Shown piece after piece: positions 384-51,963 of a stretch of 64,000 nucleotides of DNA. Origin of the DNA: Candidatus Berkelbacteria bacterium (lineage in GTDB: Bacteria; Patescibacteriota; UBA1384; JACPKC01); the NCBI GenBank assembly GCA_016198415.1, contig JACQIO010000016.1, positions 6,084 to 70,083 on the forward strand, read 5' to 3'. The notes beneath the pieces were generated by a model. The model worked only from the letters and a program-made list of their open reading frames with translations. It had not been told where the DNA came from and did not search any database. A program made the position numbers and the translations under genes. Numbering within the stretch: the stretch's first letter is position 1; every line of letters starts with the position of its first letter.

Positions 384-557
384 ATGGCACAGCAGACGTA
401 CTTTTGCCTGGAGTGCAAGCAGGAGACGGCGCTCCGCAGCTGCGAGCTCTGTGGCGAGCAGACCGAGGCGCTGAACGTCAAGGACGATCCATTGCTCGGC
501 CAATCCACGAATGGCCTGGCCTACTCAACCGGCCACGAGGACGATCTATACCTGTAG
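384..557 (+). CDS. Small zinc-ribbon protein (57 aa, CxxC-x9-CxxC); not in ORF track because <60 aa
   Basis: ATG 384 preceded by SD GGGAGGG (374-380). Translates [30 protein letters not shown]..., stop TAG 555-557. Four Cys in zinc-ribbon spacing. Confidence 0.5.
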   Translation: MAQQTYFCLECKQETALRSCELCGEQTEALNVKDDPLLGQSTNGLAYSTGHEDDLYL

Positions 558-2008
558 CCATCCAGCTCCACAACACGCGGACCCGTCGTCTCGAGCCCTT
601 CCAGCCCCTTCAACCCAACGAGGCCGGCATCTACACCTGTGGGCCAACGGTCTACCAGTACACCCACCTGGGGAACTTTCGGACCTACGTGGTGTCTGAT
701 CTCCTCCGGCGCCTCTTGGAGTACCAGGGTTTCGCCGTCAAACACGTCATGAACATCACGGACGTTGGCCACCTGGTGGGGGATGGGGACGAGGGCGAGG
801 ATCGGTTGGAAGTGGGTGCCAAGCGAGAGGGCAAGACTGCCTGGGAGATTGCCAGCTACTACACCGATGCCTTCCTCCACGATCTTGCTCGCCTCAACCT
901 CCGTCAGCCCCACGTCCTGCCGCGGGCAACTCAGCACATCCCCGAGCAGATCGCCCTCATCGAGCAGCTGGAGACCAAGGGCTTTACGTACCGAACGGGC
1001 GACGGGATCTACTTTGAGACCAGCAAGTTGTCAGACTACGGATCCCTCCTTGGTCAGGACCGAGACCAGCTCTTGGCTGGGGCGCGGGTTGAGGTCAACC
1101 CAGAGAAACACCACCCCGCCGACTTTGCGTTGTGGAAGTTTTCGGAGGACAGAAGACAGACGACAGAGGACAGAGCCGATTCGTCCTCCGTCATCCGTCC
1201 TCCGTCATCCGAAAGAAGGCAGATGGAGTGGGACTCGCCCTGGGGCGTCGGCTTCCCGGGCTGGCACATCGAGTGTTCGGCCATGAGCGTCAAGTACCTC
1301 GGCCAGCCGTTCGATCTTCACATTGGTGGCGAAGACCTCGTTTTCCCGCACCACACGAACGAGAGTGCTCAGACAGAGGCGGCCACCGGCCAGCCCCTCG
1401 CCAACTACTGGCTCCATGGGGCGTTCATGAGCGTTGATGGCGCCAAGATGAGCAAGTCGCTCGGCAATACCTACACCGTCGAGGACGTGGTCAAGCGGGG
1501 CCACGATCCATTGGCGTTCCGCTACCTCACGCTCCAGACCCACTACCGCAAACCGCTCAACTTTACCTGGGAGGCGGTCCAGGCGGCCGATCAGGCGCTC
1601 GCCAACCTTCGGGCCCTCGTCCGCGAGCTTCCAGAAGAGGGGACCGAGCTCGATCCTGCTACCGAGGAGGAGTTTCGGACCCACATCGGCCATGATCTGG
1701 GCCTGCCGCAGGCGCTGGCGCTCTTCTGGGACGTGCTCAAATCAGACCGAGAAGCAGGGGAAAAGACCACAGCCGTTCAACACTGGGACCAGGTTTTTGG
1801 CTTGGGCTTGGCCGATCAACTCGGGAAGCTCGAAGAAATTCCGACCGAGGTGAGTGCCCTGGTGGCCAAGCGCGAGCAGGCGCGGGGAGCGGGGGAGTAC
1901 GGCCAGGCCGACGAGCTTCGATCCAAGCTGACTGACCTGGGCTACACCGTCGACGACACCCCCGACGGTCCCAAGGTCCATCGAGTCGAAAAGCCAACAG
2001 AACTGTAG
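404..2008 (+). CDS. cysS: Cysteine--tRNA ligase (class I aaRS). Maximal ORF given. Homology to CysRS begins near nt 557-560 ([10 protein letters not shown]...), so the true start is probably a non-ATG codon overlapping the Zn-ribbon ORF
   Basis: HIGH-type motif [14 protein letters not shown] motif ([10 protein letters not shown]), WHIECSAM zinc-site motif. About 22-aa low-complexity insertion before WDSPWG. No SD before ATG 404. Confidence 0.9.
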
Positions 2009-2014
2009 ACTCTT

Positions 2015-2775
2015 TCACCACCCCACCTACACACCGGAAGTGTAGGTTGGGTGGTGTTATAATGCGGGCATGGCAGTCCGGCACGAATCGATCATTACCG
2101 GCGAGGTCTATCACGTCTTTAATCGTGGCGTTGAGAAGCGAGATCTGTTTATTGACGATGTCGATCGTCAGCACTTTCTCGATGTCCTCAGCTTCTACCT
2201 AGACGAAGTTCAGGCAACCCGCTTCTCATTTCTCACCACAAAGCAGCGACAAAGAATGCTGCAGAAAATGCCCACGCATCCGCGCGTTGAGATCTTGGCC
2301 TACTGCCTGATGGGCAACCACTTCCACCTGATCATCCGCCAGTTGGGCGACGAGGGGATTCGGCGATTTCTCCACCGGGCGCTGAACAGCTACGCTCGAT
2401 ACTTCAACACCCGATACGAGCGAGTCGGTGCGCTCTTCCAGGGTCGATTTCGTGCTGTCCGGGTGACGAGTGATGCCCAGCTTCTTCACCTGATCCGTTA
2501 CCTTCATCTCAACCCATACGTGAGCCATCTTGTGGAGACGCTCGACTCGTACACGTGGAGCTCTCACCCCCTCTATGCTGCCCAACGAGAGACACGACTC
2601 GTCCGCATCACTCAAGGCATGAGTTTCTTTGACAATGACCCAGAGCGATACCGGAAGTTCCTTGAGGATTATCAGGAGTACGCACGTTCGTTGCATCTCC
2701 TCCGGGACATCGCCGAGCAAAGCCGCTGATTTCACACCACCACCCTTTCACTCCGGAAGTGTAGGTGGTGTGGTG
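2015..2775 (+). mobile_element. IS200/IS605-family-like minimal element: Y1 (HUH) transposase gene flanked by subterminal hairpins
   Basis: Left hairpin CACCACCCCACCTACAC-ACCGGAA-GTGTAGGTTGGGTGGTG (2015-2055), right hairpin region with the same CCGGAAGTGTAGGTGGTGTGGTG core (2733-2775), both start with TTTCAC(C). Extended -10 (TGtTATAAT 2054-2062) immediately before ATG 2070 suggests a leaderless transcript. Confidence 0.55.
2070..2729 (+). CDS. IS200-like / REP-associated tyrosine transposase (Y1 HUH transposase, COG1943/RAYT-like)
   Basis: 219 aa. N-terminal YHVFNRG, HUH motif LMGNHFHLII, catalytic-Tyr region SYARYFNTRYERVGALFQGRF typical of Transposase_17/RAYT proteins. Confidence 0.85.
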   Translation: MAVRHESIITGEVYHVFNRGVEKRDLFIDDVDRQHFLDVLSFYLDEVQATRFSFLTTKQRQRMLQKMPTHPRVEILAYCLMGNHFHLIIRQLGDEGIRRFLHRALNSYARYFNTRYERVGALFQGRFRAVRVTSDAQLLHLIRYLHLNPYVSHLVETLDSYTWSSHPLYAAQRETRLVRITQGMSFFDNDPERYRKFLEDYQEYARSLHLLRDIAEQSR

Positions 2776-2791
2776 AGGGGTTAGGGTGGGC

Positions 2792-2820
2792 TTGACAGAT
2801 GCCACATCCTGGTGTATCAT
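2792..2820 (+). promoter_or_regulatory. Near-consensus sigma70 promoter TTGACA-N17-TATCAT
   Basis: TTGACA 2792-2797, 17-nt spacer, TATCAT 2815-2820, directly after the IS200-like right end, pointing into an ORF-free region. Confidence 0.5.
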
Positions 2821-2826
2821 CTCGCT

Positions 2827-3526
2827 GTTCCTGGCGCTTCAATCACATGGTTCCTCTTCGCGCCGGGGACGTTCACAACAAAGATGGAGGCGGGCTGGGA
2901 TGCGCACCCCTAGCCACCACGCCTCCTCGTTCCGGCCCTTGTTGGTCGGACGAAAGCCTGGTGCGCACCCTGGGTCCGGTGAGCGTTTGACGCTCCAAGC
3001 CGTACCCAAGGTTCATGGCCTCGCCCTTGCGCCGGTTCGAACCCGGCTGCCACTCATTTGGTTTGTCGGGCGAGGCAAACCGGAGGCGGTGATCTGACCA
3101 GCGATCCGGGCTGGTTAGGGAGATCAAGATCATCGCTGATGCGGGAGCGTCGTGCCGAGGGCTGGGCCTCGGCACTGTCACTGGATTCCCGGAAGAACTG
3201 GGTCCAGGATGCTCCGGGACGGAGAGAGCTGCGCTGGTGGTTGACTCCCACCTAAGCCAACTCGGCTGCTCTCCTCCTATCCCACCCGTCACCCCCACTC
3301 GCGGGACGCGTGCCAGGCCTTCGGGTCTGGACCCACGAGCGGGGCTTGCAGGCCGCACTGCGTGGCCACCCACGAAGACCTCCACTTCCCCCACCGAAGC
3401 GCGCGATGGGGCCCCGGGATCACTCGGCGGAGGCACTCATGAGGAGTCGGCGGGGTGCGTTGCACCCACCCGGGGCACCACCCCGTCGACCTCCTCCCAC
3501 AAAAAGCGCCGTAGGGCGCACACACC
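2827..3526 (+). ncRNA. Candidate non-coding transcript or decayed gene remnant (no credible ORF on either strand)
   Basis: About 0.9 kb between tnpA and the next gene. Only short Arg/Pro/Gly-rich overlapping ORFs. Consensus promoter upstream, canonical T-arm-like hairpin GCCGGTTCGAACCCGGC at 3031-3047, GC hairpin near the 3' end. Confidence 0.2.
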
Positions 3527-3560
3527 GGGCCGGCTCATCGCGAGCCGGCCCTTCCTCATG
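3527..3560 (+). terminator. Terminator-like GC hairpin GGGCCGGCTC-ATCGC-GAGCCGGCCC followed by TTCCTCAT
   Basis: Perfect 10-bp stem seen directly. Weak U-tract, as usual in a GC-rich genome. Confidence 0.3.
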
Positions 3561-3570
3561 TCATCACCAA

Positions 3571-3599
3571 TTGACAACCGCCGCGCCTTCAGGTATGGT
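3571..3599 (+). promoter_or_regulatory. sigma70 promoter TTGACA-N17-TATGGT
   Basis: TTGACA 3571-3576, TATGGT 3594-3599. SD GAGGAG precedes ATG 3710. Confidence 0.5.
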
Positions 3600-3709
3600 G
3601 ACGCGTTCTTGCACCAGAACAATTCGGACAACGAAACGCTCCTTTTGGGGCGCGTTCTGCGTGCAGACAGATCACACGCGGGCGTGGCCCGCATGAGGAG
3701 AAAGTCAAA

Positions 3710-5278
3710 ATGTTCAAAGTTCTGTTCGTTCAAACCATCGGCCTCGTCATGACCCTCGGCCTCGCTGGGCTGGCGCTCGGGAGCCTCCGGCTCCTCTGGG
3801 CAGCGCACCGGGACAATGGGTCCTACTCGTCCCGAACGCCGTGTTGGCCGGAGCGCCGGACCTGGTGGCTGCGGGGTGCCAGTTGCATCGTGGCTGCCTG
3901 GAGTGCGTACGCACTGGGGAGGATCTTGGCGCCAGACACCTGGCTCTGGTTCTTCCTGGTCACGTACACGACGACCTGGCTGACGCTCTCTACGCACCTC
4001 AGCCGGACGATGTGGCGGACCAACTCCCGTCAGCCGCGGATCCATCGCCTCTCATGGGGTGTGGCGATCTTCGCACTGATGGGTGGCACCATGACCGTCC
4101 TCGCGACCACTTGGTCCCTGTTCATGGTGGCGGCAATCTTTGTTGCCCTGCCACGGATCTGGGAGTGGTGGTCCGAGTGGTTCCAGGATGTGCGGTACCG
4201 CCGGCACCGGCCGGTCGCCGCGCTCGGCATGGGGCTGGCGATCCTCGTCGGCCTGAGCTGGATCACAGTCATGAGCGGGCGCGTTGCCATCGAAGCCCTC
4301 TTGGGGACGAAGGTTATCGTGCGGGCCGGCGGAGTCGTTACGCCGCCGCCACCTCCGCCGCCGGTGGCGCTTCCCAAGTGGATCCTCGGCAAAGGGGTCT
4401 GGATCGTCAACCTTGACCACGCCGAGGGCGGGGACCTCGAGGCCATCGTGGCGAAGGCCAAGAAGTACCACGCCGACCACCTCCTGGTGAAGCTCTTTGA
4501 CTCAGAGTGGGATGAGGGGCCGTGGATCCCGTTTCACGGCGCCGACATCCGCCCGGTGGCCAAGGAGCTCATCGCGCTCGCCCACGCCGAGGGCATCAAG
4601 GTCTACCTCTGGGGGTACGTCTACGGCAAGCGGACCCAGTGGGAGATCGGGCTCGTCCGGGAGTGCCTCATGCTCAACCCCGACGGCTTTGTCTATGACG
4701 CCGAGGGGGAGTGCAAGAAGGAGGGCCGAACCGAGAACCTGGAGGAGATCTGCCGGTCGGTTACGGAATGGCGGGACAAGTACCGGCCGAACGCACTGCT
4801 CGGGTTCTCGTCGTTCGACGGGACGATCATGCACGCCGACGGAGGGTTCCCGTACGCGGTCTTCGACCGCTACTGCGAGGTCTTCATCCCCCAGTGTTAC
4901 TGGAAGGATGATGCCACCGGCACTCCAGCCGATCGTCTCAGCTGGGCGTCGGAGCAGTGGGTCGCCTCGGCGGCCAAGTACCGTGCGCGGGGGGCAGGCA
5001 AGTCGTTCGATCGAATCCTCCCGGCTGGCCACGCCTACGACCCCAGACTCAACAGTAACCTTCGGGAGATCCCGTATGAGGAGGTCGTGGACTTCCTTGA
5101 ACGGGCCGAAGGCTTCTGGGGGGTGTCGCTGTACACCTACGAGTTTATGGGGCCGGAGCAGTGGCAGGGCTTCCGGGACGGGCCCGGGTCGCTCCGGGAG
5201 AAGGCCGAGCGGTACGGCGAGGAGCTGCGCAAGGCGCGGGAGGCTAAGCGTAGCGGCAAGAAGGGAAAGGAGGGCTGA
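3710..5278 (+). CDS. Polytopic membrane protein with poly-Pro linker and C-terminal TIM-barrel glycoside-hydrolase-like domain (GHL/DUF4015-type guess), Lys-rich tail
   Basis: 522 aa. About 6 N-terminal hydrophobic helices, PPPPPPP linker, then WIVNLDHAEGGD...IKVYLWGYVYG...LNPDGFVYDAEGE. Good SD. Domain assignment by similarity only. Confidence 0.8.
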   Translation: MFKVLFVQTIGLVMTLGLAGLALGSLRLLWAAHRDNGSYSSRTPCWPERRTWWLRGASCIVAAWSAYALGRILAPDTWLWFFLVTYTTTWLTLSTHLSRTMWRTNSRQPRIHRLSWGVAIFALMGGTMTVLATTWSLFMVAAIFVALPRIWEWWSEWFQDVRYRRHRPVAALGMGLAILVGLSWITVMSGRVAIEALLGTKVIVRAGGVVTPPPPPPPVALPKWILGKGVWIVNLDHAEGGDLEAIVAKAKKYHADHLLVKLFDSEWDEGPWIPFHGADIRPVAKELIALAHAEGIKVYLWGYVYGKRTQWEIGLVRECLMLNPDGFVYDAEGECKKEGRTENLEEICRSVTEWRDKYRPNALLGFSSFDGTIMHADGGFPYAVFDRYCEVFIPQCYWKDDATGTPADRLSWASEQWVASAAKYRARGAGKSFDRILPAGHAYDPRLNSNLREIPYEEVVDFLERAEGFWGVSLYTYEFMGPEQWQGFRDGPGSLREKAERYGEELRKAREAKRSGKKGKEG

Positions 5279-5326: not shown

Positions 5327-5553
5327 TGCTTCTGGTCGTAACGACCTCGGCGCGTCTACAAATGACCAATAATCAAACTCCAATAACCAGACAAGTTCCA
5401 ATATCCAATGTTCAGTTTGGTTATTCGGACCTTCGGTTATTGTCTGATCATTGAGGCTTGGTCATTGGTCATTGCCTCGCGCACCCTGCTCCTATTGAAC
5501 CACCCCTGTTGGCAGCGTCGAATGGGTCTGCGGCCGGGTGAACATCAAGGCAT

Positions 5554-5582
5554 TGACAGGAGGAGAGGTACGTGCTAGACTC
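5554..5582 (+). promoter_or_regulatory. sigma70 promoter TTGACA-N17-TAGACT
   Basis: TTGACAGG 5554-5561 and TAGACT 5577-5582, about 250 nt upstream of ATG 5834 (long leader). Confidence 0.35.
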
Positions 5583-5833
5583 CCGAGTTCGCTGCTGGTA
5601 CAGTGCGTTCAGAGGGACGCACGTCCAGTTGCTTTCCACCAAGTAGAACGTCATTCCACTCTGGTCCGGCTAGGAGCTGGGAGAGTTGTCTGCGAGCCTT
5701 GCTCAACGACTTTGCCCCTCCTTCCCAGCTGTCCCCTGAGGATACTCGAGCTCGCTCCGCTTGCCGGAGAGGGTACGTGGCCTGGCTGGACCAGAGGGAA
5801 TGACACTTAAGGAGGGGATCGTGGGGCACGACT

Positions 5834-13511: not shown

Positions 13512-13586
13512 GGGTGAACGTGAATGGTGAAAGGAGAAGGCAGCGTGACGCTTTGCGCTGTACCTTTCACTTTTCACGTTTCACCC
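13512..13586. repeat. GTGAAAG/C heptad-repeat hairpin element, copy 1
   Basis: Forward arm GGGTGAACGTGAATGGTGAAAGGAGAAGG, 20-nt palindromic spacer, reverse arm TACCTTTCACTTTTCACGTTTCACCC. Confidence 0.6.
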
Positions 13587-13596
13587 AAGGTACCCC

Positions 13597-14243: not shown

Positions 14244-15248
14244 ATGTCCACCCTTGATGATCGGAAATCGAAACTCTACGAGCTCCTCAAGCTTGAGGAG
14301 AAAGACGCCCGGATTCGTGCAATCGAGGCGCTGATGGCCGCGCCCAATTTCTGGGCCGATCAAACCCAGGCCACGCAGCTCAGCACTGAACTGGCCCGGC
14401 TCAAACAGACTATTGCCGAGTGGGAAATAGCCGAGACCGATGATCAGGTTCGGGCGCTGGAACTGAAGTCGCTCCTCTCTGGTAAGTACGACGCCAGCAA
14501 CGCCATCGTCAGCTTCCACGCCGGCGCCGGGGGGACCGAGGCCATGGACTGGGCCGGAATGCTCCGGCGGATGATTGAGCGTTGGGCCGAAGGTCGGGGT
14601 TTGCCGGTGACGGAAATCGAGCAGTCGCTCGGTGAGGAGGCCGGCCTCAAGTCCGCCACCCTCAAGATTGCCGGCGAGCACGCCTACGGCTATCTCAAAG
14701 GGGAGGCCGGCGTTCACCGCCTGGTCCGGATCTCGCCGTTCGACGCCGATAAAGCCCGCCATACTTCTTTTGCGCTCATTGAGGTGGTGCCCGAGCTCGC
14801 AGATCTGGGCGATGTGGTGATCGACGAGAAAGACCTCCGGACCGATCTCTTCCGCTCCGGCGGCAAGGGTGGTCAGAACGTCAACAAAGTGGAAACGGCC
14901 GTTCGGATCACGCACCTCCCCACCGGCCTGGTTGCCACCAGCCAGAACGAGCGGTCTCAGGCTCAGAATCGAGCGCTCGCAATGGGCGTCCTGGTTGCCA
15001 AGCTCCAGGCCTTGGCGCACGAGCAGCGGCTCGAGCAGATTGGCGAGCTCAAGGGCGAGCACCGGAAGGTGGAGTGGGGGAGTCAGATTCGCTCCTACGT
15101 CCTCCAGCCCTACCAACTGGTCAAGGATCTCAGGACCGGGCATGAGGAGAGTGATGCCGAGGCTGTCCTTGAGGGCAGGAAGCTGCAGGGGTTTATGGAT
15201 GCCTACCTTGCGTGGCAGGCCACACAAGGGGTGAAACGTGAAAGGTAA
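14244..15248 (+). CDS. prfB: Peptide chain release factor 2
   Basis: SPF motif (RISPFDADKARHTSF) and GGQ motif (GGKGGQNVNKVETAVRITH). Single uninterrupted ORF with no CTT-TGA-C frameshift site. Last 6 codons plus stop lie inside the GTGAAAG repeat. Confidence 0.9.
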   Translation: MSTLDDRKSKLYELLKLEEKDARIRAIEALMAAPNFWADQTQATQLSTELARLKQTIAEWEIAETDDQVRALELKSLLSGKYDASNAIVSFHAGAGGTEAMDWAGMLRRMIERWAEGRGLPVTEIEQSLGEEAGLKSATLKIAGEHAYGYLKGEAGVHRLVRISPFDADKARHTSFALIEVVPELADLGDVVIDEKDLRTDLFRSGGKGGQNVNKVETAVRITHLPTGLVATSQNERSQAQNRALAMGVLVAKLQALAHEQRLEQIGELKGEHRKVEWGSQIRSYVLQPYQLVKDLRTGHEESDAEAVLEGRKLQGFMDAYLAWQATQGVKRER

Positions 15249-15303
15249 AAGGTGAAAGGTGCACGGAGACAGCCCGTTTCACGATTCACCTTTCACGTTT
15301 CAC
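15228..15303. repeat. GTGAAAG/C heptad-repeat hairpin element, copy 2 (overlaps prfB 3' end)
   Basis: GGGGTGAAACGTGAAAGGTAAAAGGTGAAAGGTG - cacggagacagcccg - TTTCACGATTCACCTTTCACGTTTCAC. Confidence 0.6.
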
Positions 15304-15371
15304 TCGTCTAGAGTTCTCGAGGCCTCTCGGGTATGCTGGCGCTGAGCATCGGTGACCAGAAAGGATGACGC

Positions 15372-15674
15372 ATGCCCGGCATGTTCGATCAAATGAAGGC
15401 GATTGCCAAGGCCAAGAAAGTCCAGAACGACCTGAAAAAGACCGAGATTGAGGCGAGCGGGGGCGATGGCGCCGTGACGGTGGTCTTTACCGGCGAACTC
15501 AAGCTCCAGTCCATCACGATTGCCGAGCGGATGCTCGCACCGGAGCGCAAGCAGGAGCTCGAGCGGCTCATCAAAGACACCATGACCCAGGCGATGCAGC
15601 AAGCCCAGGCCTTGGCGGCCGAGAAGACGCGCGAGGTCATGAAGCAAATGGGCGTCAACCTGCCGGGACTCTAG
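15372..15674 (+). CDS. ybaB: Nucleoid-associated protein YbaB/EbfC
   Basis: 100 aa, MFDQMKAIAKAKKVQNDLKK...LPGL. Typical YbaB length and coiled-coil composition. Confidence 0.85.
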   Translation: MPGMFDQMKAIAKAKKVQNDLKKTEIEASGGDGAVTVVFTGELKLQSITIAERMLAPERKQELERLIKDTMTQAMQQAQALAAEKTREVMKQMGVNLPGL

Positions 15675-15677
15675 GTT

Positions 15678-16104
15678 GGTGAAAGGTGAAACGTGAAAGG
15701 TGAAACGACCACGATCAACCTCTCCCGGCCTCATTACCGTCTCGATGCTTGGAAGGAATCACTCAAGCTGGCCAAACTGATCTACGAGCTCAGTCAACGC
15801 TTCCCCGACTCTGAACGGTATGGGTTAGTCAGTCAGATGCGTCGGGCGGCAGTCTCGGTATTGAGTAACATCGCGGAGGGCGCAGCGCGGAATAGCAGAA
15901 AGGAATTTGCCCAGTTTCTCTCAATTGCTCAGGGGTCACTCAGTGAGCTTGAAGCCCAGGTGATCATTTCACAGGAGCTTGGCTATATTGCAGATTCAGC
16001 AGAGGTGCTTGAGCTCCTCGATCGGGTATCTCGTCTTGTCGGTGGATTGCAGAGGAGTTTGCGATGACCCTGGACCTTTCACGTTTCACATTTCACCTTT
16101 CACC
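15678..16104 (+). mobile_element. GTGAAAG-repeat stem whose loop carries a four-helix-bundle protein gene (rRNA-IVS-like cargo element)
   Basis: Forward arm GGTGAAAGGTGAAACGTGAAAGGTGAAACG (15678-15707) and reverse arm CCTTTCACGTTTCACATTTCACCTTTCACC (16075-16104) flank the ORF. Same arms as the cargo-less hairpin copies. Confidence 0.5.
15693..16067 (+). CDS. Four-helix-bundle protein (23S rRNA intervening-sequence protein family, TIGR02436-like)
   Basis: LAKLIYELSQRFPDSERYGLVSQMRRAAVSVLSNIAEGAARNSRKEFAQFLSIAQGSLSELEAQ matches the family consensus. GTG start lies inside the repeat arm. Confidence 0.8.
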   Translation: MKGETTTINLSRPHYRLDAWKESLKLAKLIYELSQRFPDSERYGLVSQMRRAAVSVLSNIAEGAARNSRKEFAQFLSIAQGSLSELEAQVIISQELGYIADSAEVLELLDRVSRLVGGLQRSLR

Positions 16105-16107
16105 ACT

Positions 16108-16689
16108 ATGAAACTCATCGTCGGTCTTGGAAATCCAGGCAAGGAGTACGCCCAGACGCGTCACAACGTTGGGTGGATGGTGCTCGATCGACTGGCGGAG
16201 CAGCTGGGGACCCATCCGTGGTCGCACTCGGAGAAGTTTACGGCTGAGTTGGCTGAGATAGGGGAGGGGATTCACAGAACAATCCTCCTCAAGCCCACCA
16301 CCTTCATGAACAACTCTGGGCGGGCCGTGGAACGACTCCGCCACTTCTCCAAGCTCGAGCCAGCGGACATTGTGGTTGTCCACGACGAGCTGGCGCTTCC
16401 CCTGGGGTCAATGCGCGTGCGGCTGGGCGGAACCTCGGCCGGCCACAACGGGGTAGGCTCAATCATTCACCACCTTGGAACCGAGGCGTTCTGGCGGGTT
16501 CGGATTGGGATCGAGCAGCCAGGCGCAACTCGACCGTACGGGGAGCAGTCGGACTTTGTCCTGGGACGGTTCAGCGCCGAGGAGCGAGTCATCATTGCGC
16601 CCGTCATTGACCGAGCGGTGGCACTCCTGGTAGACTTCAGCTCTTCAGGAACCCTCAGCGACGAGACCATCACCATTCCAGCAGCGTAA
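16108..16689 (+). CDS. pth: Peptidyl-tRNA hydrolase
   Basis: MKLIVGLGNPGKEYAQTRHNVGW... catalytic His motif. Start chosen at the MKLIVGLGNPG ATG rather than the longer ORF. Confidence 0.9.
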   Translation: MKLIVGLGNPGKEYAQTRHNVGWMVLDRLAEQLGTHPWSHSEKFTAELAEIGEGIHRTILLKPTTFMNNSGRAVERLRHFSKLEPADIVVVHDELALPLGSMRVRLGGTSAGHNGVGSIIHHLGTEAFWRVRIGIEQPGATRPYGEQSDFVLGRFSAEERVIIAPVIDRAVALLVDFSSSGTLSDETITIPAA

Positions 16690-19641: not shown

Positions 19642-19717
19642 CGGCGCGTAGCGCAGCCAGGGAGCGCACTACGTTGGGACGTGGAGGACGTGGGTTCAAA
19701 TCCCATCGCGCCGGCCA
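19642..19717 (+). tRNA. tRNA-Pro (anticodon GGG), CCA encoded. Hand-fold gives a 6-nt anticodon loop
   Basis: Acceptor CGGCGCG/CGCGCCG, D-arm GCGC-AGCCAGGGA-GCGC, anticodon arm CTACG-TTGGGA-CGTGG, T-arm GTGGG-TTCAAAT-CCCAT, discriminator G, CCA. Confidence 0.75.
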
Positions 19718-21780: not shown

Positions 21781-24261
21781 TTGACGGGTTTTGCATTTCT
21801 CCTCCTGATACTGGGACTGGCTGGGGCTGGTGGCTGGCTCTGGCTTGATCGTTATCGAGAACGATTGGGGAGTGAGCGCGCCCGAGACCTCGTCCTCTTG
21901 AAGGTCCTAGTCCCCAAGGAGTCTGGTGAGTCGCAAGACGAGACCGGAAAGCGAGACTTCCGGGAAACGATGTCGGTGGCGGAGCAGTTCCTGGCCAGCT
22001 TTGCCTCGCTCCACAAAGAGGGGCTCCTGGAGTGGATTCCCGGTCAGCCCACCATTAGCTTGGAGTTCGTGGCCAAGAACGGGCTCCTGACGTTCTACAT
22101 TGCTGTCCCCAAGGCGTTCCGAGAGCTGGCCGAGCGGCAGCTTCACAGCTACTACCCCTACGCCCAGATCGAGCCGAGCGAAGCGTTCCGCATCTTTTCC
22201 GAGACGGTCTATCCGGAGGGCATGTACGTCAAAACCAAGAAGACGTACGTCCTCCCTATCAAAACCTACAAGGAGCTCGAGAGCGATCCGCTGAACGCCA
22301 TCACCAACGCCTTCAGCAAGCTCCCCGATGGAGTCAATGCCGGGTTCCAGCTCCTCCTCCGGCCCACCTCGGGAGCCTGGCGGGACAAGACCGTCCACGC
22401 CGCCAAATCGGTGGCGCAAGGCAAGAATCTGACCAAATCGCACTGGGCGCTTCAGGCGCTCAATGCGGTTGTGTCCTCGCTTCGCAGTGGCGGAGCCGCG
22501 GCTGAGGAGAAAGAGAAGGAGAAGGAGACCGTTCGCCTGACGCCCATCCAAGAAGAAGTGATGAAGGGAATCCAGGAGAAGGGGAGTAAGGTCGGTTTCT
22601 CGGCCCAGCTGCGGGTGATTGTCCTGTCTCCCACCTCCACCAACGAGGCCAAGATCGCCCTGGACAACATCGCCTCGTCGCTCGGCCAGTACACCGCGCC
22701 CGAGATGAACTACCTGAAGAAAGTTGGGGCGACGGACGCCAAGCAGTTTGCCACCGATTTCATCCTCCGCCGGTTCCGAGAGCGCGCCCCGTCGTCCATC
22801 CTCAACACCGAGGAGCTGGCTTCCCTCTACCACGTGCCCAACGAGTTCATTGAGACGCCCAACATTGAGTGGCTGGCCGCTCGGACCATGGCGCCCCCAT
22901 CTAACTTACCGCCGGAGGACCCCAACGCCGTCATCCTCGGCAAGAGCGTCTACCGAGGTGAGGAGCGGCCGGTCAGGATCAAGCAGGACGATCGGCGCCG
23001 TCACCTCTACTCGATTGGAAAAACTGGCGTGGGCAAGACGACGCTCTTCATCCACCAGATCGAACAGGACATCAAGGCGGGCCGAGGGGTGGCGTACCTG
23101 GATCCCAATGGGGACGCCATCGAGTCGATTCTGACGATCATTCCCAAGGAGCGGGCCGAGGACGTCGTCCTCTTTGATCCGGCCGACCTGGAGCGGCCGA
23201 TGGGACTCAACGTCCTTGAGTGGAAGCGGCTGGAAGACCGCGACTTCCTGGTGGCCGAGTGGCTGGAGATCTTCTACAAGCTCTTTGATCCCAATCGAAC
23301 CGGCATGGTCGGTCCGCAGTTTGAGCACTGGGGGCGGAACGCCTCGCTCTCCGTCATGGCCCGGCCCGGTGGGGGGACGCTCATCGATATCCCACGGCTC
23401 TTCACGGACGATGCGTTCCGGGACGACACGCTCCGGTACGTGACCGATCCGGTCGTCAAGGCATTCTGGGAGCAACAGATGGCCAAGACCGCTGACTTCC
23501 ATAAGTCGGAGATGTACAACTACTTCATCAGTAAGTTCGGTCGTTTCATGACGAACGATCTCATTCGCAACATCATTGGCCAGACCAAGAGCGCCTTCGA
23601 CATTCGCGAGTTGATGGATGGCCATAAGATCTTCCTGGTCAACTTGAGTAAGGGGAAGATTGGTGAGACCAACTCTCACCTGCTGGGTATGATCTTAGTG
23701 GCCAAGATGCAGGTGGCGGCCTTTCAGCGCGCCGACACGCCCGAGGCAGATCGGAAAGACTTCTACCTCTACGTGGATGAGTTCCAGAACTTCACCACCG
23801 ACACGTTCAAGACGATTCTCTCTGAGGCACGGAAGTACCGCCTGAACCTCAACATCACCAACCAGTACATTGCCCAGTTGCCAGAAGAGATTCGAGACGC
23901 TGTCATCGGCAACGCCGGGACCCTCATCTCCATGCGCGTGGGCGCGGCTGACGCTGAGTTTCTCGAGAAGGAGTTCCCCAACGTGACCGAGCACGACCTC
24001 GTCAACCTGCCCTTTGCGAGCTCCTACACCAAGCTCCTGATTGACGGGACACCCACCAAGCCGTTCTCGATGATGACCATCAAGACGGCCACTCCGCCGA
24101 ATGCGGAACTGGGAGCGGCCATCCGTGAGCTCTCGCGCCTCAAGTATGGGAAGGAGAAGCGGCAGGTTGAGCAGGAGATGGAACAGCGCTACCAAGCCAA
24201 GAATCCCTTTGCACCAGACAATCTTCACATTCCGGACGTGCCGCCGGGACGGGAAGGGTAG
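21781..24261 (+). CDS. Membrane-anchored P-loop ATPase, type IV coupling protein (VirD4/TraG/TrwB)-like, paralog 1
   Basis: TTG start, one N-terminal TM helix. Walker A SIGKTGVGKTTL, VAYLDPNGD (as TrwB VIVDPNGD), FDPADLERPMGLNVLE, Walker B DFYLYVDEFQNF, NQYIAQLPEE. Confidence 0.8.
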   Translation: MTGFAFLLLILGLAGAGGWLWLDRYRERLGSERARDLVLLKVLVPKESGESQDETGKRDFRETMSVAEQFLASFASLHKEGLLEWIPGQPTISLEFVAKNGLLTFYIAVPKAFRELAERQLHSYYPYAQIEPSEAFRIFSETVYPEGMYVKTKKTYVLPIKTYKELESDPLNAITNAFSKLPDGVNAGFQLLLRPTSGAWRDKTVHAAKSVAQGKNLTKSHWALQALNAVVSSLRSGGAAAEEKEKEKETVRLTPIQEEVMKGIQEKGSKVGFSAQLRVIVLSPTSTNEAKIALDNIASSLGQYTAPEMNYLKKVGATDAKQFATDFILRRFRERAPSSILNTEELASLYHVPNEFIETPNIEWLAARTMAPPSNLPPEDPNAVILGKSVYRGEERPVRIKQDDRRRHLYSIGKTGVGKTTLFIHQIEQDIKAGRGVAYLDPNGDAIESILTIIPKERAEDVVLFDPADLERPMGLNVLEWKRLEDRDFLVAEWLEIFYKLFDPNRTGMVGPQFEHWGRNASLSVMARPGGGTLIDIPRLFTDDAFRDDTLRYVTDPVVKAFWEQQMAKTADFHKSEMYNYFISKFGRFMTNDLIRNIIGQTKSAFDIRELMDGHKIFLVNLSKGKIGETNSHLLGMILVAKMQVAAFQRADTPEADRKDFYLYVDEFQNFTTDTFKTILSEARKYRLNLNITNQYIAQLPEEIRDAVIGNAGTLISMRVGAADAEFLEKEFPNVTEHDLVNLPFASSYTKLLIDGTPTKPFSMMTIKTATPPNAELGAAIRELSRLKYGKEKRQVEQEMEQRYQAKNPFAPDNLHIPDVPPGREG

Positions 24262-24267
24262 GGGAGG

Positions 24268-27200
24268 ATGCTGACCATCATTCTCCTCCTCATTCTCGCG
24301 GTGGCCGGTTGGTTTGGCTGGCGGGCCTTCCAGCAGTGGCGCTTGGCCCGCCGGGCCGAGGAGTACGCCGGCTGGCTGGGCTCGCAGCGCTCGATCATTC
24401 TCCACGTCCTCGTCCCCAAGAACAACGAGAAGACGCCCCTGGCGGCCGAGCAGTTCTTTGCGGCCATCCACGGCGTCTTCCGGGAGGGCGCTGACTTTCA
24501 GGAGCAGATCAGCTTTGAGCTGGTCAGTCACGACACCTTCATCCATTTCTACCTCCACGTCCCAGCCCACCTCAAAGAGTTCGTTGAGGGCCAGCTCTAC
24601 GCCCAGTACCCGCAGATTGAGATTCAGGAGGTCGAGGATTACCTGACGCCGCTCGTGCCTTCCCAGGCGATGCTCGGTGCCGAGCTCGTCCAGACCAAGG
24701 ACCCGGTCTATCCCATTCTGACCTTCCAGAATTTCACCGTTGATCCGCTCTCGGGGATCACGGCCGTGCTCGGCAACCTCGGTGCGGGCCAGCAGCTCTA
24801 CGTGCAGATCGTCATCAAGCCGGTTGCCGAGTCCTGGCAGGAGCGAGGCGTCAAGTTTGTGGCTGCCAAACGACTCGGCGTTCCGCTCAAAAAGCCGAGC
24901 GGCTTTGTCCAGCTCATCGGGGTGGCCAGTCGCGTGGTCGTCAGTATCCTCCAGACCATCTTCCTACCGTCTGGTGGGGGCGGGGAAGGGGCGGCTGAGG
25001 CGGCGCCCGCCAAAGAGCCGGACAAGCGGCCCGAACTCTCGGCGCCAGAAGAAGCGGCCTTGAAGGGGATTGAGTCCAAGGTCACCAAGTTGGGGTATGC
25101 CGTCAGGATTCGTCTCCTCGCCGTCGCGTCGGATCCCTACACCGCCCGGAGCCGGATTGAGGCGATCAGCGGTGCCTTCAAGCAGTTCAACACCAATAAC
25201 CTGAACGGCTTTCGCTCGGCGATTGTGGACCAGGTTGAGCCATTCCTCCACGCCATGAAGGCGCGTGAGTTTGCTGGCGACGGCATGATTCTCAACACCG
25301 AGGAGCTGGCCTCGCTCTACCACTTGCCGTCGGTCAGCGTGGAGACCCCCAATATGATGTGGGCCGGGAGCAAGAAGGGGGAGCCTCCGGCCAACCTACC
25401 GGTAGCCGGCCGAGACGACGAGTCAGACATCACCTTCCTGGGCATGACGGACTTCCGGAACAATCGGCACAAGTTTGGGATCAAGTCGAAAGATCGCGGT
25501 CTCCACATGTACACCATCGGCAAGACCGGCACGGGGAAGTCAACCCTCCTCCTCAACATGGTCATCGACGATATCCAGAAGGGGAAAGGGGTGGCGGTGG
25601 TTGATCCACACGGGCAGCTCATTCAAGACGTCCTCGAGCGTCTCCCACCCCACCGGACGAACGACGTCATCTACTTCAATCCGGCCGATCGAGATCACCC
25701 GATCGGTTTCAACCTGTTTGAGAGCGTTGATCCAGACCTTCGCAACGTCGTGGCCTCTGGCATCCTGAGCATCTTCAAGAAGCTTTGGGCCGACTCCTGG
25801 GGCCCGCGACTTGAGTACATCCTTCGGAATGCCATCCTCGCCCTCATGTACTATCCGGACACGACCCTCCTGGGGATCAACCGGCTCTTGACCGATCCAG
25901 CCTATGAGCGGCGGGTGATTCGCAAGGTGACCGATCCCGTGGTCCGAGACTTCTTTGAGAACGAGTACGACATGTACGATCCCAAGTTCCGCCGTGAGGC
26001 GATCGCGCCCATTCAGAACAAGGTGGGCCAGTTCCTCTCCTCGAGCACCATCCGCAACATCCTCGGTCAACCGCAGAGCTCCTTCAACATGCGCGAGGTC
26101 ATGGACGAGGGGAAGATTCTGCTCCTGGATCTCTCGATTGGCCGGATTGGTGAAGACAACGCCTCGCTCCTTGGTTCCATGCTGATCACCAAGATTCAGT
26201 TGGCGGCGATGAGTCGGGCCGATATCCCAGAGGCCGAGCGGCGCGACTTCTACCTCTACGTTGATGAGTTCCAGAACTTTGCCACCGAGTCCTTTGCCGT
26301 CATTCTCTCTGAGGCTCGGAAGTACCACCTCAATCTGAGCCTGACGAACCAGTACATTGCCCAGATGCCAGAGGTAGTGGCTAAGGCCATCTTTGGGAAC
26401 GTCGGCACGATTATTTCGTTTCGAGTTGGTCCGAGCGATGCGGCTGGCCTGGCCAAAGAGTTTGAGCCAGTCTTTGAGTCGCAGGACCTGATCAACCTCG
26501 ATAACTACCACATCTACGTGAAGATGGCGATCGATGGGGTGACGCGGCCGGCGTTCTCGTCCAAGACGTTACCGCCCATGAATGTCCAGCCAAGCCGGGA
26601 GAACTACGAGAAGGTTGTTCGGGTATCCAGAGAGCGCTACGCCTCACCACGCGTCTTTGTGGAACAGAAGATTCAGGACTGGGCGGACGACGTCCAGGTC
26701 AAGCAGGCGCAGGAGTGGCGCCGGAAGATTGAGGAGCGAGAGCAGGGGAGTGGTGGCACCCCGGGGACGCCACCCTCACCAGCTGGGGCCAGTCAGCCGC
26801 GACCGGAACCGCGCCGGGAGCCGGAGTACCGCAATCGGAACGACTTTGTGAAGTTTGTCGACGATACCAAGCCGACTCCATCGCCAGCGCCACGCTCAGT
26901 TGCTCCACGACCCCCAGCGGCGCCGAGTGGCCAGGGTGGCCGGCCCTCCTCCAATCGGGATGCCGATCGGAGTCGTCGGTCTCGAGGAGGGAGGAATCGC
27001 CGTGGTCCCGCTGGATCTGGAGGGCAGGGGAGTGGTCAGGCCCCATCCACTGGATCTCGGCCGAGCGGGCCACCGAGAACTCGCGGGCCGGAGCAGGGGA
27101 GTCGACCAGCTCCAGCAGCTCTGAGCCCGAGTCAACCACAACCGGCGCAGCCGCCCAAACAAGAGGGGAGTGCCGAACCCATTCGACCCAACCCACCGCC

Positions 27201-49089: not shown

Positions 49090-49143
49090 ACGTCTCCTTT
49101 GCTCCGTTCGATCCTGCTCCAGTATTCGGAGGCGGTCAAGGGC

Positions 49144-49200
49144 GGTGAAAGGTGAAACGTGAATCGTGAAAGGACAGACCTTTCGCGTTTCACCTGTCTG
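49144..49200. repeat. GTGAAAG/C heptad-repeat hairpin element, copy 4 (between trxA and nrdJ)
   Basis: GGTGAAAGGTGAAACGTGAATCGTGAAAGG - acagac - CTTTCGCGTTTCACC. Confidence 0.6.
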
Positions 49201-49211
49201 GATTCACTAGA

Positions 49212-51890: not shown

Positions 51891-51900
51891 GACCCTCCTC

Positions 51901-51963
51901 ATGAATGGTGAAAGGTGAATGGTGAAAGGTGAAACGCCCAAACCTTACGTGTCACGCTTCACC
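51901..51963. repeat. GTGAAAG/C heptad-repeat hairpin element, copy 5 (between nrdR and nrdJ; supplies nrdR stop and nrdJ RBS region)
   Basis: ATGAATGGTGAAAGGTGAATGGTGAAAGGTGAAACG - cccaaacc - TTACGTGTCACGCTTCACC. Confidence 0.6.

Follow-up and report, generated by a model that had tools for sequence, protein, structure and literature searches.

A gene for a Y1 protein of the HUH type lies downstream of cysS in a 64,000-nt stretch of a Candidatus Berkelbacteria genome (contig JACQIO010000016.1, positions 6,084 to 70,083; hereafter the window) and is bracketed by two copies of one palindrome. We propose that positions 2013-2776 form a self-contained, ~760-bp Y1 cassette of the REPtron/TIRtron type, bracketed by its own cognate palindromes in direct orientation, and we give this proposal a probability of about 60%. 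On our reading, the cassette arrived by Y1-type single-strand transposition and now has low or no activity, a domesticated role of the protein being the main rival. We class the element neither with classic IS200 elements nor with demonstrated RAYT/REP systems. For the window, the main yield is a corrected annotation as a class-2 Y1 cassette with cognate palindromes and a probable leaderless promoter. Numbering follows the window throughout, and the motif counts given below cover these 64 kb.

A RAYT-like Y1 protein with the motifs of subclass 2.1

The Y1 open reading frame (ORF) is intact and starts with ATG. Its product carries YHVFNRG at aa 14-20, N83-H84-F85-H86 at nt 2316-2327, QGRF at aa 124-127 and WSS at aa 163-165. 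H84 and H86 (nt 2319-2327) form the HUH motif, and the catalytic tyrosine is Y144 in RYLHLNP (nt 2499-2501). The first-pass annotation of this DNA had described a 219-aa protein with YHVFNRG and an HFH HUH motif, which is what the sequence contains. It had also presented QGRF as the region of the catalytic tyrosine. That label is wrong, because in a profile alignment with E. coli TnpA-REP (4ER8) FQGRF pairs with W94-Q95 and Y144 pairs with Y115; the HUH and W/S-tail positions align as well. W94 and Q95 are guide/DNA-recognition residues of E. coli TnpA-REP (PMC6006769). The window protein has F123 in place of W94 and retains the glutamine as Q124.

An alignment of 40 homologs was used to define invariant residues and as a profile. 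All 19 invariant residues are present in the window protein, including H84, H86 and R143-Y144-x-H146-x-N148-P149. The 40-sequence profile matched 4ER8 with an E-value of 1e-4 and ISDra2 TnpA with an E-value of 0.15. An AlphaFold model of the protein (predicted local distance difference test 95.2, predicted template modelling score 0.90) was compared to the PDB with Foldseek: 4ER8 was the best match (E 2e-7, template modelling score 0.71 on the target), followed by IS608 and ISDra2 TnpA, and the top 20 fold matches are all Y1 transposases. The protein matches Pfam PF01797 (Y1_Tnp) at 29.8 bits, against a curated cut-off of 23 (E 7e-7), and gives a partial match to NCBIfam NF047646 (REP_Tyr_transpos) at 45.9 bits, under the cut-off of 80. 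Pfam detected no Bac_DnaA_C or helix-turn-helix (HTH) tail domain in it.

TnpA-Y1 proteins of class 2 have a tyrosine motif of the form Y---NP, and those of class 1 have Y---Q (PMC6006769). The window protein shows the class-2 form, Y144-L-H-L-N148-P149, with N148 and P149 invariant. Subclass 2.1 is defined in Table 1 of the same survey by NH[YF]H, FQ or W[EQ], Y[IV]HLNP, an SS tail, a median length of 238 aa and an HUH-to-Tyr distance of 58-67 aa (PMC6006769); the corresponding features of the window protein are NHFH, LFQGRF, YLHLNP, WSS, 219 aa and 60 aa. The second position of the tyrosine motif is L here, I or V in the published table, and I in the family consensus YIHLNP. By this match of motifs to the published table, the class-2 protein would be of the subclass-2.1-like type. 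Subclass 2.1 corresponds to RAYT Group 1 of Bertels and to the TIRYT/TIRtron of Di Nocera et al. 2013 (PMC6006769, PMC3733652). The RAYT-like rather than IS200-like character of the protein is supported by 4ER8 as best match in both profile and fold, by the Y---NP motif and by the partial REP_Tyr_transpos match.

Related palindromes on both sides of the gene

The left palindrome folds as DNA with -16.9 kcal/mol (z -5.2), a value equalled by none of 200 shuffles. We regard it as the putative site at which the Y1 protein binds single-stranded DNA (ssDNA), and as the left end of the cassette. The right palindrome retains the 3' arm and the loop CCGGAA, and its 5' arm has diverged. Aligned in direct register, the two flank repeats (2016-2056 and 2735-2775) are 83% identical over 41 nt. 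Each flank is itself palindromic, and in inverted register they are 77% complementary over 43 nt. Their loops agree at six of seven positions in direct register and at three of seven in inverted register, and the better direct match indicates that both copies lie on the same strand. The 14-mer core common to both, CCGGAAGTGTAGGT, occurs exactly twice in the window, where 0.28 occurrences are expected even at two mismatches. A search of JGI metagenome contigs with a 20-nt degenerate palindrome core returned two unrelated chance matches only. Of the claim that hairpins with a common core stand on both sides, the related repeats and a strong left hairpin hold up, while the right hairpin is structurally weak.

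The ~90 nt of Y1 flanks contain TTTCAC at three places, 2013-2018, 2730-2735 and 2746-2751, the last of these in the diverged 5' arm of the right palindrome. The CAC of each is the base of a stem (2016-2018 in the left copy), and read on the + strand the hairpin foot is TTTCAC/CACC, whereas the - strand gives CACCACC. The hairpin foot bears no 5' GT[AG]G tag; GTAG is found only within the 3' arm, adjoining the loop. Both flanks had been said to begin with TTTCAC(C). The motif is indeed present at both feet, with its CAC as part of the stem rather than of a separate upstream tag.

Neither palindrome is followed by a T-run, and a terminator scan called neither of them. The left palindrome may also terminate cysS transcription. 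Rfam gave nothing real over 1900-3800, its miRNA-family matches being just the hairpin. An antisense ORF within the Y1 gene (2226-2735, 169 aa) was taken as a by-product of high G+C and set aside.

Palindrome-gene-palindrome is the usual layout of the family

We compared the cassette with 80 homologous loci from species-representative genomes, mostly metagenome-assembled genomes of Patescibacteria and Omnitrophota. For 77 genes, 150 nt upstream were compared with 150 nt downstream, mismatched locus pairs serving as the null. Similarity between the two flanks exceeded the 99th percentile of mismatched pairs in 62 of the 77; among these 62, 34 matched better in direct orientation, 24 in inverted orientation and 4 equally well in both. 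A perfect hairpin of at least 7 bp was present upstream of 50 and downstream of 47 of the 77 genes, compared to 14 of 246 control windows. The median distance of these hairpins is 23.5 nt from the ATG on the upstream side and 5 nt from the stop codon on the downstream side. At locus L081 the flanks are clean 37-nt inverted repeats (92%). Similar flanks and hairpins across homologs therefore establish palindrome-gene-palindrome as the family norm, of which the window cassette is a typical instance, and the hairpins on either side are part and parcel of the gene.

The palindrome sequence is entirely different between lineages, and where diverged paralogs share one contig (L004, L040, L081) each has its own palindrome. 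The 2018 survey of Quentin et al. reported no REP-like structures next to subclass 2.1 genes (PMC6006769). Most of the homologs we examined keep hairpin flanks, in a motif-matched subclass that has been reported without them.

Nine homologs have their flank hairpin a third time, in frame within the Y1 ORF, mostly at aa 52-71, before the HUH motif (Table 1); the window Y1 gene contains no internal copy. At locus L027 (20.5 kb), the flank hairpin CCGGAGGTTGAACCTCCGGAGG has six further copies over the 20-kb locus, and at least some members of the family thus do have a dispersed REP-like population. The family is very large and comprises 10,524 clusters at 50% identity (E <= 1e-10).

A probable leaderless promoter abuts the left palindrome

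The -10 hexamer TATAAT (2058-2063) is separated from the ATG at 2070 by 6 nt, and the A of the ATG is therefore the expected start of transcription from a sigma-70-type promoter. The TG of the extended -10 element is formed by the last two bases of the left stem. No -35 match lies upstream of TGtTATAAT (CGGAAG stands at 2035-2040), and no Shine-Dalgarno motif of the GGAG type precedes the Y1 ATG. The extended -10 had been reported to end 8 nt before the ATG; the motif is there as described, and the spacer is 6 nt.

Among 83 homologous genes, 21 have a -10-like hexamer (at least five of six hexamer matches) whose end is exactly 6 nt away from the ATG; all remaining spacings combined are rare. 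A Shine-Dalgarno-like motif precedes 14 of the 83. The closest clade (L085, L086) uses Shine-Dalgarno, so the leaderless trait is common, not universal. The pattern of a -10 hexamer, 5-7 nt and ATG or GTG occurs three times on the two strands of the window, each time with a 6-nt spacer and before an ORF of at least 205 aa. The other two sites belong to ORFs at 47129-46038 (-), 363 aa, and 31613-30996 (-), 205 aa. The earlier suggestion of a leaderless mRNA gains strong comparative support from the spacing kept in 21 of 83 homologs and in all three window motifs. Judged from these sequences, the Y1 mRNA is probably leaderless and starts at the ATG, many members of the Y1 family appear to be leaderless from a promoter abutting the upstream palindrome, and a minority of genes in this Berkelbacteria genome are probably leaderless too.

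Table 1. Coordinates of the Y1 cassette, its upstream neighbour, the heptad arrays of the window and the hairpin copies inside homologous Y1 genes.
Feature	Position	Strand	Basis or remarks
TTTCAC at the 5' foot of the left palindrome	2013-2018	+	Read from sequence; 5 nt past the cysS stop
Left palindrome, 17-nt arms with one mismatch, 7-nt loop ACCGGAA	2016-2056	+	Folding, direct repeat
Extended -10 element TGtTATAAT	2055-2063	+	Read from sequence; spacing kept among homologs
Y1/HUH ssDNA endonuclease-transposase gene, 219 aa, class 2 (RAYT/TIRYT-like)	2070-2729	+	Profiles, fold, invariant residues
Right palindrome, degenerate copy of the left	2732-2776	+	Direct and inverted repeats, folding; starts 2 nt past the TGA (2727-2729)
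cysS, upstream neighbour of the Y1 gene	404-2008		TAG stop at 2006-2008
Inverted heptad doublets, long hairpins	13517-13595; 15221-15314 (between prfA and ybaB); 49135-49204		-15 to -23 kcal/mol
Solo heptad array	51898-51945		
Spaced inverted heptad array pair	15669-15716 and 16067-16114	+ and -	41 nt, 85% complementary
Internal hairpin copies in homologs	L023 10417-10437; L044 3740-3757; L045 3315-3338; L050 10154-10178; L055 10154-10171		
Internal hairpin copies in homologs, continued	L062 1122-1140; L068 623-640; L078 10171-10193; L081 12144-12176		L081: second paralog

A mobile cassette or a fixed gene

By analogy with IS608/ISDra2 TnpA and TnpA-REP, the Y1 protein would bind the palindromes folded as hairpins in ssDNA, for example at the replication fork. 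H84 and H86 would hold the metal ion, and Y144 would cut close to the foot of the hairpin, becoming linked to the DNA as a 5'-phosphotyrosine, and then rejoin the ends. This HUH/Tyr chemistry would once have moved the cassette to its present site and may still move it. The extended -10, whose TG lies within the base of the left stem, would start the Y1 mRNA at the ATG. Since the TG belongs to the stem, palindrome-bound protein could block the promoter, and we speculate that the Y1 promoter could be silenced by bound protein or by an extruded hairpin.

The genomic context is consistent with such an arrival. The two nearest Berkelbacteria (CysS 62-66% identical) share the upstream order recR-small ORF-cysS with the window and have no Y1 gene after cysS; one of them, L089, also has the downstream prfA...L7/L12 block in common with the window. 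A conserved non-coding element directly follows cysS in both relatives and lies 3.5 kb further on in the window, at ~5552-5830. This displacement places the Y1 cassette in inserted or variable DNA.

Mobility is seen in a homolog. P0044 (43% identical) is carried on a 749-bp unit that includes 56 nt upstream of the ATG and 42 nt downstream of the stop (L102 2434-3182) and has inverted-repeat ends. The unit is 100% identical in two unrelated contexts (L102 2434-3182, L106 125-873), which demonstrates that at least this family member moves as a 749-bp block. A large number of short contigs terminate at the borders of the unit, as expected of a multicopy mobile element.

Several points weigh against the proposed cassette or against its mobility. 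The Y1 gene is the only one in the 64 kb. Its cluster in the protein database has one member, an identical protein named as a transposase of Candidatus Berkelbacteria, on one contig of 122,686 bp, the next relatives are 45-52% identical, and no identical copy was found elsewhere in that database. Searches of the window for the flank palindrome, from exact to three mismatches, gave no extra copies. The right hairpin folds with -10.8 kcal/mol (z -1.1), which 26 of 200 shuffles equal. The homolog P0115, for which 22 contigs were read, has the same neighbours in 10 of the 10 places shown. Only 13 of 72,556 plasmid records and 1 of 50,697 phage records carry a family member, a rarity that we count as evidence against mobility. 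The nearest relatives are distant, and the absence of the gene from their syntenic site could reflect loss, not gain. The assignment to subclass 2.1 stands at the level of motifs matched to a published table. A single copy and a degenerate right palindrome together point to a cassette whose mobility in this genome is low or has been lost.

The single copy with no identical counterpart elsewhere, the degenerate right palindrome, the constant surroundings of P0115 and the rarity on plasmids and phages also favour a different explanation, in which the Y1 gene is an immobile, domesticated host gene. Its palindromes would now act solely as transcription signals, as terminators of cysS and Y1 and as the operator of Y1, and its protein would have a role on ssDNA unrelated to moving its own gene. 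Published RAYT groups behave in a housekeeping-like manner (PMC5581495), and the left palindrome stands immediately behind the cysS stop and reaches into the -10 region. A fixed host gene is, however, hard to reconcile with a gene position that is unconserved across the 80 homolog loci, with the missing gene at the relatives' syntenic site, and with a homologous unit that has sharp ends and full identity in two contexts. The lack of a T-run and of a terminator call for either palindrome also speaks against it. Moreover, the palindrome changes with the protein between lineages and paralogs, a pattern expected of protein-DNA co-evolution but not of a generic terminator. We therefore consider domestication unlikely, while treating it as the most serious of the alternatives. 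Synteny with cysS was tried as a sign of a fixed host gene and rejected: cysS lies within 10 kb of the Y1 gene in 0 of 80 homolog loci.

GTGAAA heptad arrays elsewhere in the window

The window contains 22 matches to GTGAAA heptad arrays, where 0.1 are expected (Table 1). The first-pass annotation had proposed that the Y1 enzyme mobilises these hairpins, as RAYTs do with REPs. In such a scheme, Y1, a domesticated RAYT, would act in trans on the GTGAAA/TTTCAC arrays via the TTTCAC motif that its own palindromes also have at their foot, in the way RAYTs act on GTAG-tagged REPs. The arrays are real, far above chance, and form REPIN-like inverted doublets that fold as long hairpins. TTTCAC is enriched in the Y1 flanks, the closest homolog, at L081 (52% identity), has TTTCCAC feet on its flanking repeats, and no second Y1 gene in the window competes for the role.

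The distribution of the arrays does not support the proposal. The feature that defines a RAYT, flanks drawn from the dispersed family, is absent: the Y1 flanks consist of another palindrome and have no heptad periodicity, and more than 10 kb separate the Y1 gene from any array. None of the 111 fetched loci, which include the 80 homolog loci and the two Berkelbacteria relatives, contains a heptad array, so the two do not co-occur. The CAC of TTTCAC is merely the stem base, and the foot is absent from the close homolog L086; TTTCAC was accordingly rejected as a family-wide recognition tag, being present as TTTCCAC in L081 and missing from L086. The arrays also have an association of their own, since the spaced pair brackets a cassette that is inserted relative to L089, and our view covers about half of one contig. 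We consider the trans-acting scheme highly improbable. The same applies to its boldest form, for which the comparison of loci gave no support and in which the arrays would be a new, heptad-built kind of REPIN or MITE terminus moved in trans by the lone Y1, with its own flanks outside that family, and perhaps carrying the bracketed gene as cargo.

That gene is an ORF at 15693-16064 (+), 124 aa, of the 23S_rRNA_IVP/four-helix-bundle family (Pfam E 6e-36). The 23S_rRNA_IVP cassette of ~400 bp is an insertion between ybaB and pth, which abut in L089. The heptad arrays look like the ends of a separate small mobile cassette.

Least probable of all is an ordinary IS200/IS605 element (TnpA subclass 1.1) with classic subterminal hairpins: the Pfam Y1_Tnp match, two direct hairpins on the same strand like the left and right ends of IS608/ISDra2, and a ~760-bp unit of IS200-like size would fit it, but subclass 1.1 (IS200) has DH[VI]H, Y[IV]ENQ and ~150 aa (PMC6006769), whereas the window protein has NHFH, YLHLNP (Y---NP, not Y---Q), 219 aa and a WSS tail, is much closer to TnpA-REP than to ISDra2 TnpA by profile (E 1e-4 versus 0.15), and comes with neither tnpB nor multiple near-identical copies. 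Multiple identical copies with IS200 ends, which the first-pass annotation had named as an argument for an ordinary insertion sequence, were likewise not seen in the 64 kb.

Other features of the window

Downstream of the right palindrome, 2777-3709 (~930 nt) has no credible ORF, with no Pfam match on four long frames and no Rfam match; Pfam on the ORFs of 2777-5278 gave no match either. A near-consensus promoter, TTGACA-17-TATCAT, stands at 2792-2820, 16 nt past the right palindrome. A conserved downstream non-coding partner of the Y1 gene was considered and rejected: the ~930-nt gap after the L081 gene contains tRNA genes and has nothing in common with 2777-3709.

The displaced non-coding element has its core at 5665-5735, CTAGGAGCT.GGGAGAGTTGTC...TGCCCCTCCTTCCCAGCTG, with its own TTGACA/TAGACT promoter. 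It is conserved at the DNA level in L089 (11440-11950) and L091 (11600-11900), has no Rfam match, and is a candidate small RNA of a new kind.

At 19642-19717, beside tRNA-Glu and tRNA-Thr, ARAGORN predicts a tRNA with the two-base anticodon 'gg', which Rfam scores as tRNA at 52.3 bits. Direct-repeat families with a constant spacing of 2487-2490 nt and 72-90% identity at 22798-26372 point to two tandem paralogous genes.

Comparison with known systems

The family-level picture should be of some use for work on HUH enzymes and on candidate-phyla-radiation genomes, and the flank hairpins provide defined short DNA substrates for the biochemistry of a poorly studied Y1 subclass.

The cassette resembles IS608/ISDra2 in its Y1 HUH fold, its one small gene, the hairpin near each end on the same strand and a presumed single-strand cut-and-rejoin reaction, and the P0044 unit behaves as a discrete mobile block, as IS200/IS605 elements do. 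Unlike IS608/ISDra2, it has the Y---NP motif, a longer protein with a C-terminal helical tail, no tnpB, a single copy and much weaker similarity. Of the features of IS200/IS605 elements, it shows the same-strand subterminal hairpins, the right one weak, and lacks the motifs, the protein length and, within the 64 kb, the multiple copies.

With E. coli TnpA-REP (4ER8, subclass 2.2) the cassette has in common the Y---NP motif, the single copy and a gene flanked by cognate palindromes. It differs in having no GT[AG]G tag, F at the W94 position, an undispersed palindrome and direct flanks instead of inverted REP pairs; the protein is ~55 aa longer, and its REP_Tyr_transpos score is under the cut-off. 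Measured against strict RAYT/REPtron systems (subclasses 2.2, 2.4, 2.5, 2.7, 2.8), what is missing is a palindrome dispersed over the 64 kb, the GT[AG]G tag, W94 and a score above the NF047646 cut-off. Several homologs with an in-frame hairpin copy recall subclass 2.4, in which REP copies are found inside tnpA-REP, although their insertions lie mostly before HUH rather than between HUH and Tyr and their motifs are not WQ and YIxNNP.

The closest counterpart is found in subclass 2.1/TIRYT, with its motif set, a length of ~220-240 aa, an HUH-to-Tyr distance of 60 aa and low copy number with diverged paralogs. The differences are L at the second position of the tyrosine motif, no Bac_DnaA_C/HTH tail, and flanks that, unlike those in the subclass 2.1 survey, are clear and often direct hairpins here and in most homologs. 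Many TIRs contain a GGGGWSAS motif, which the window cassette lacks. In the TIRtron (PMC3733652) the gene is likewise bracketed by repeats; some of those are partly or wholly self-complementary, they sometimes overlap the ORF ends, and they are often undispersed.

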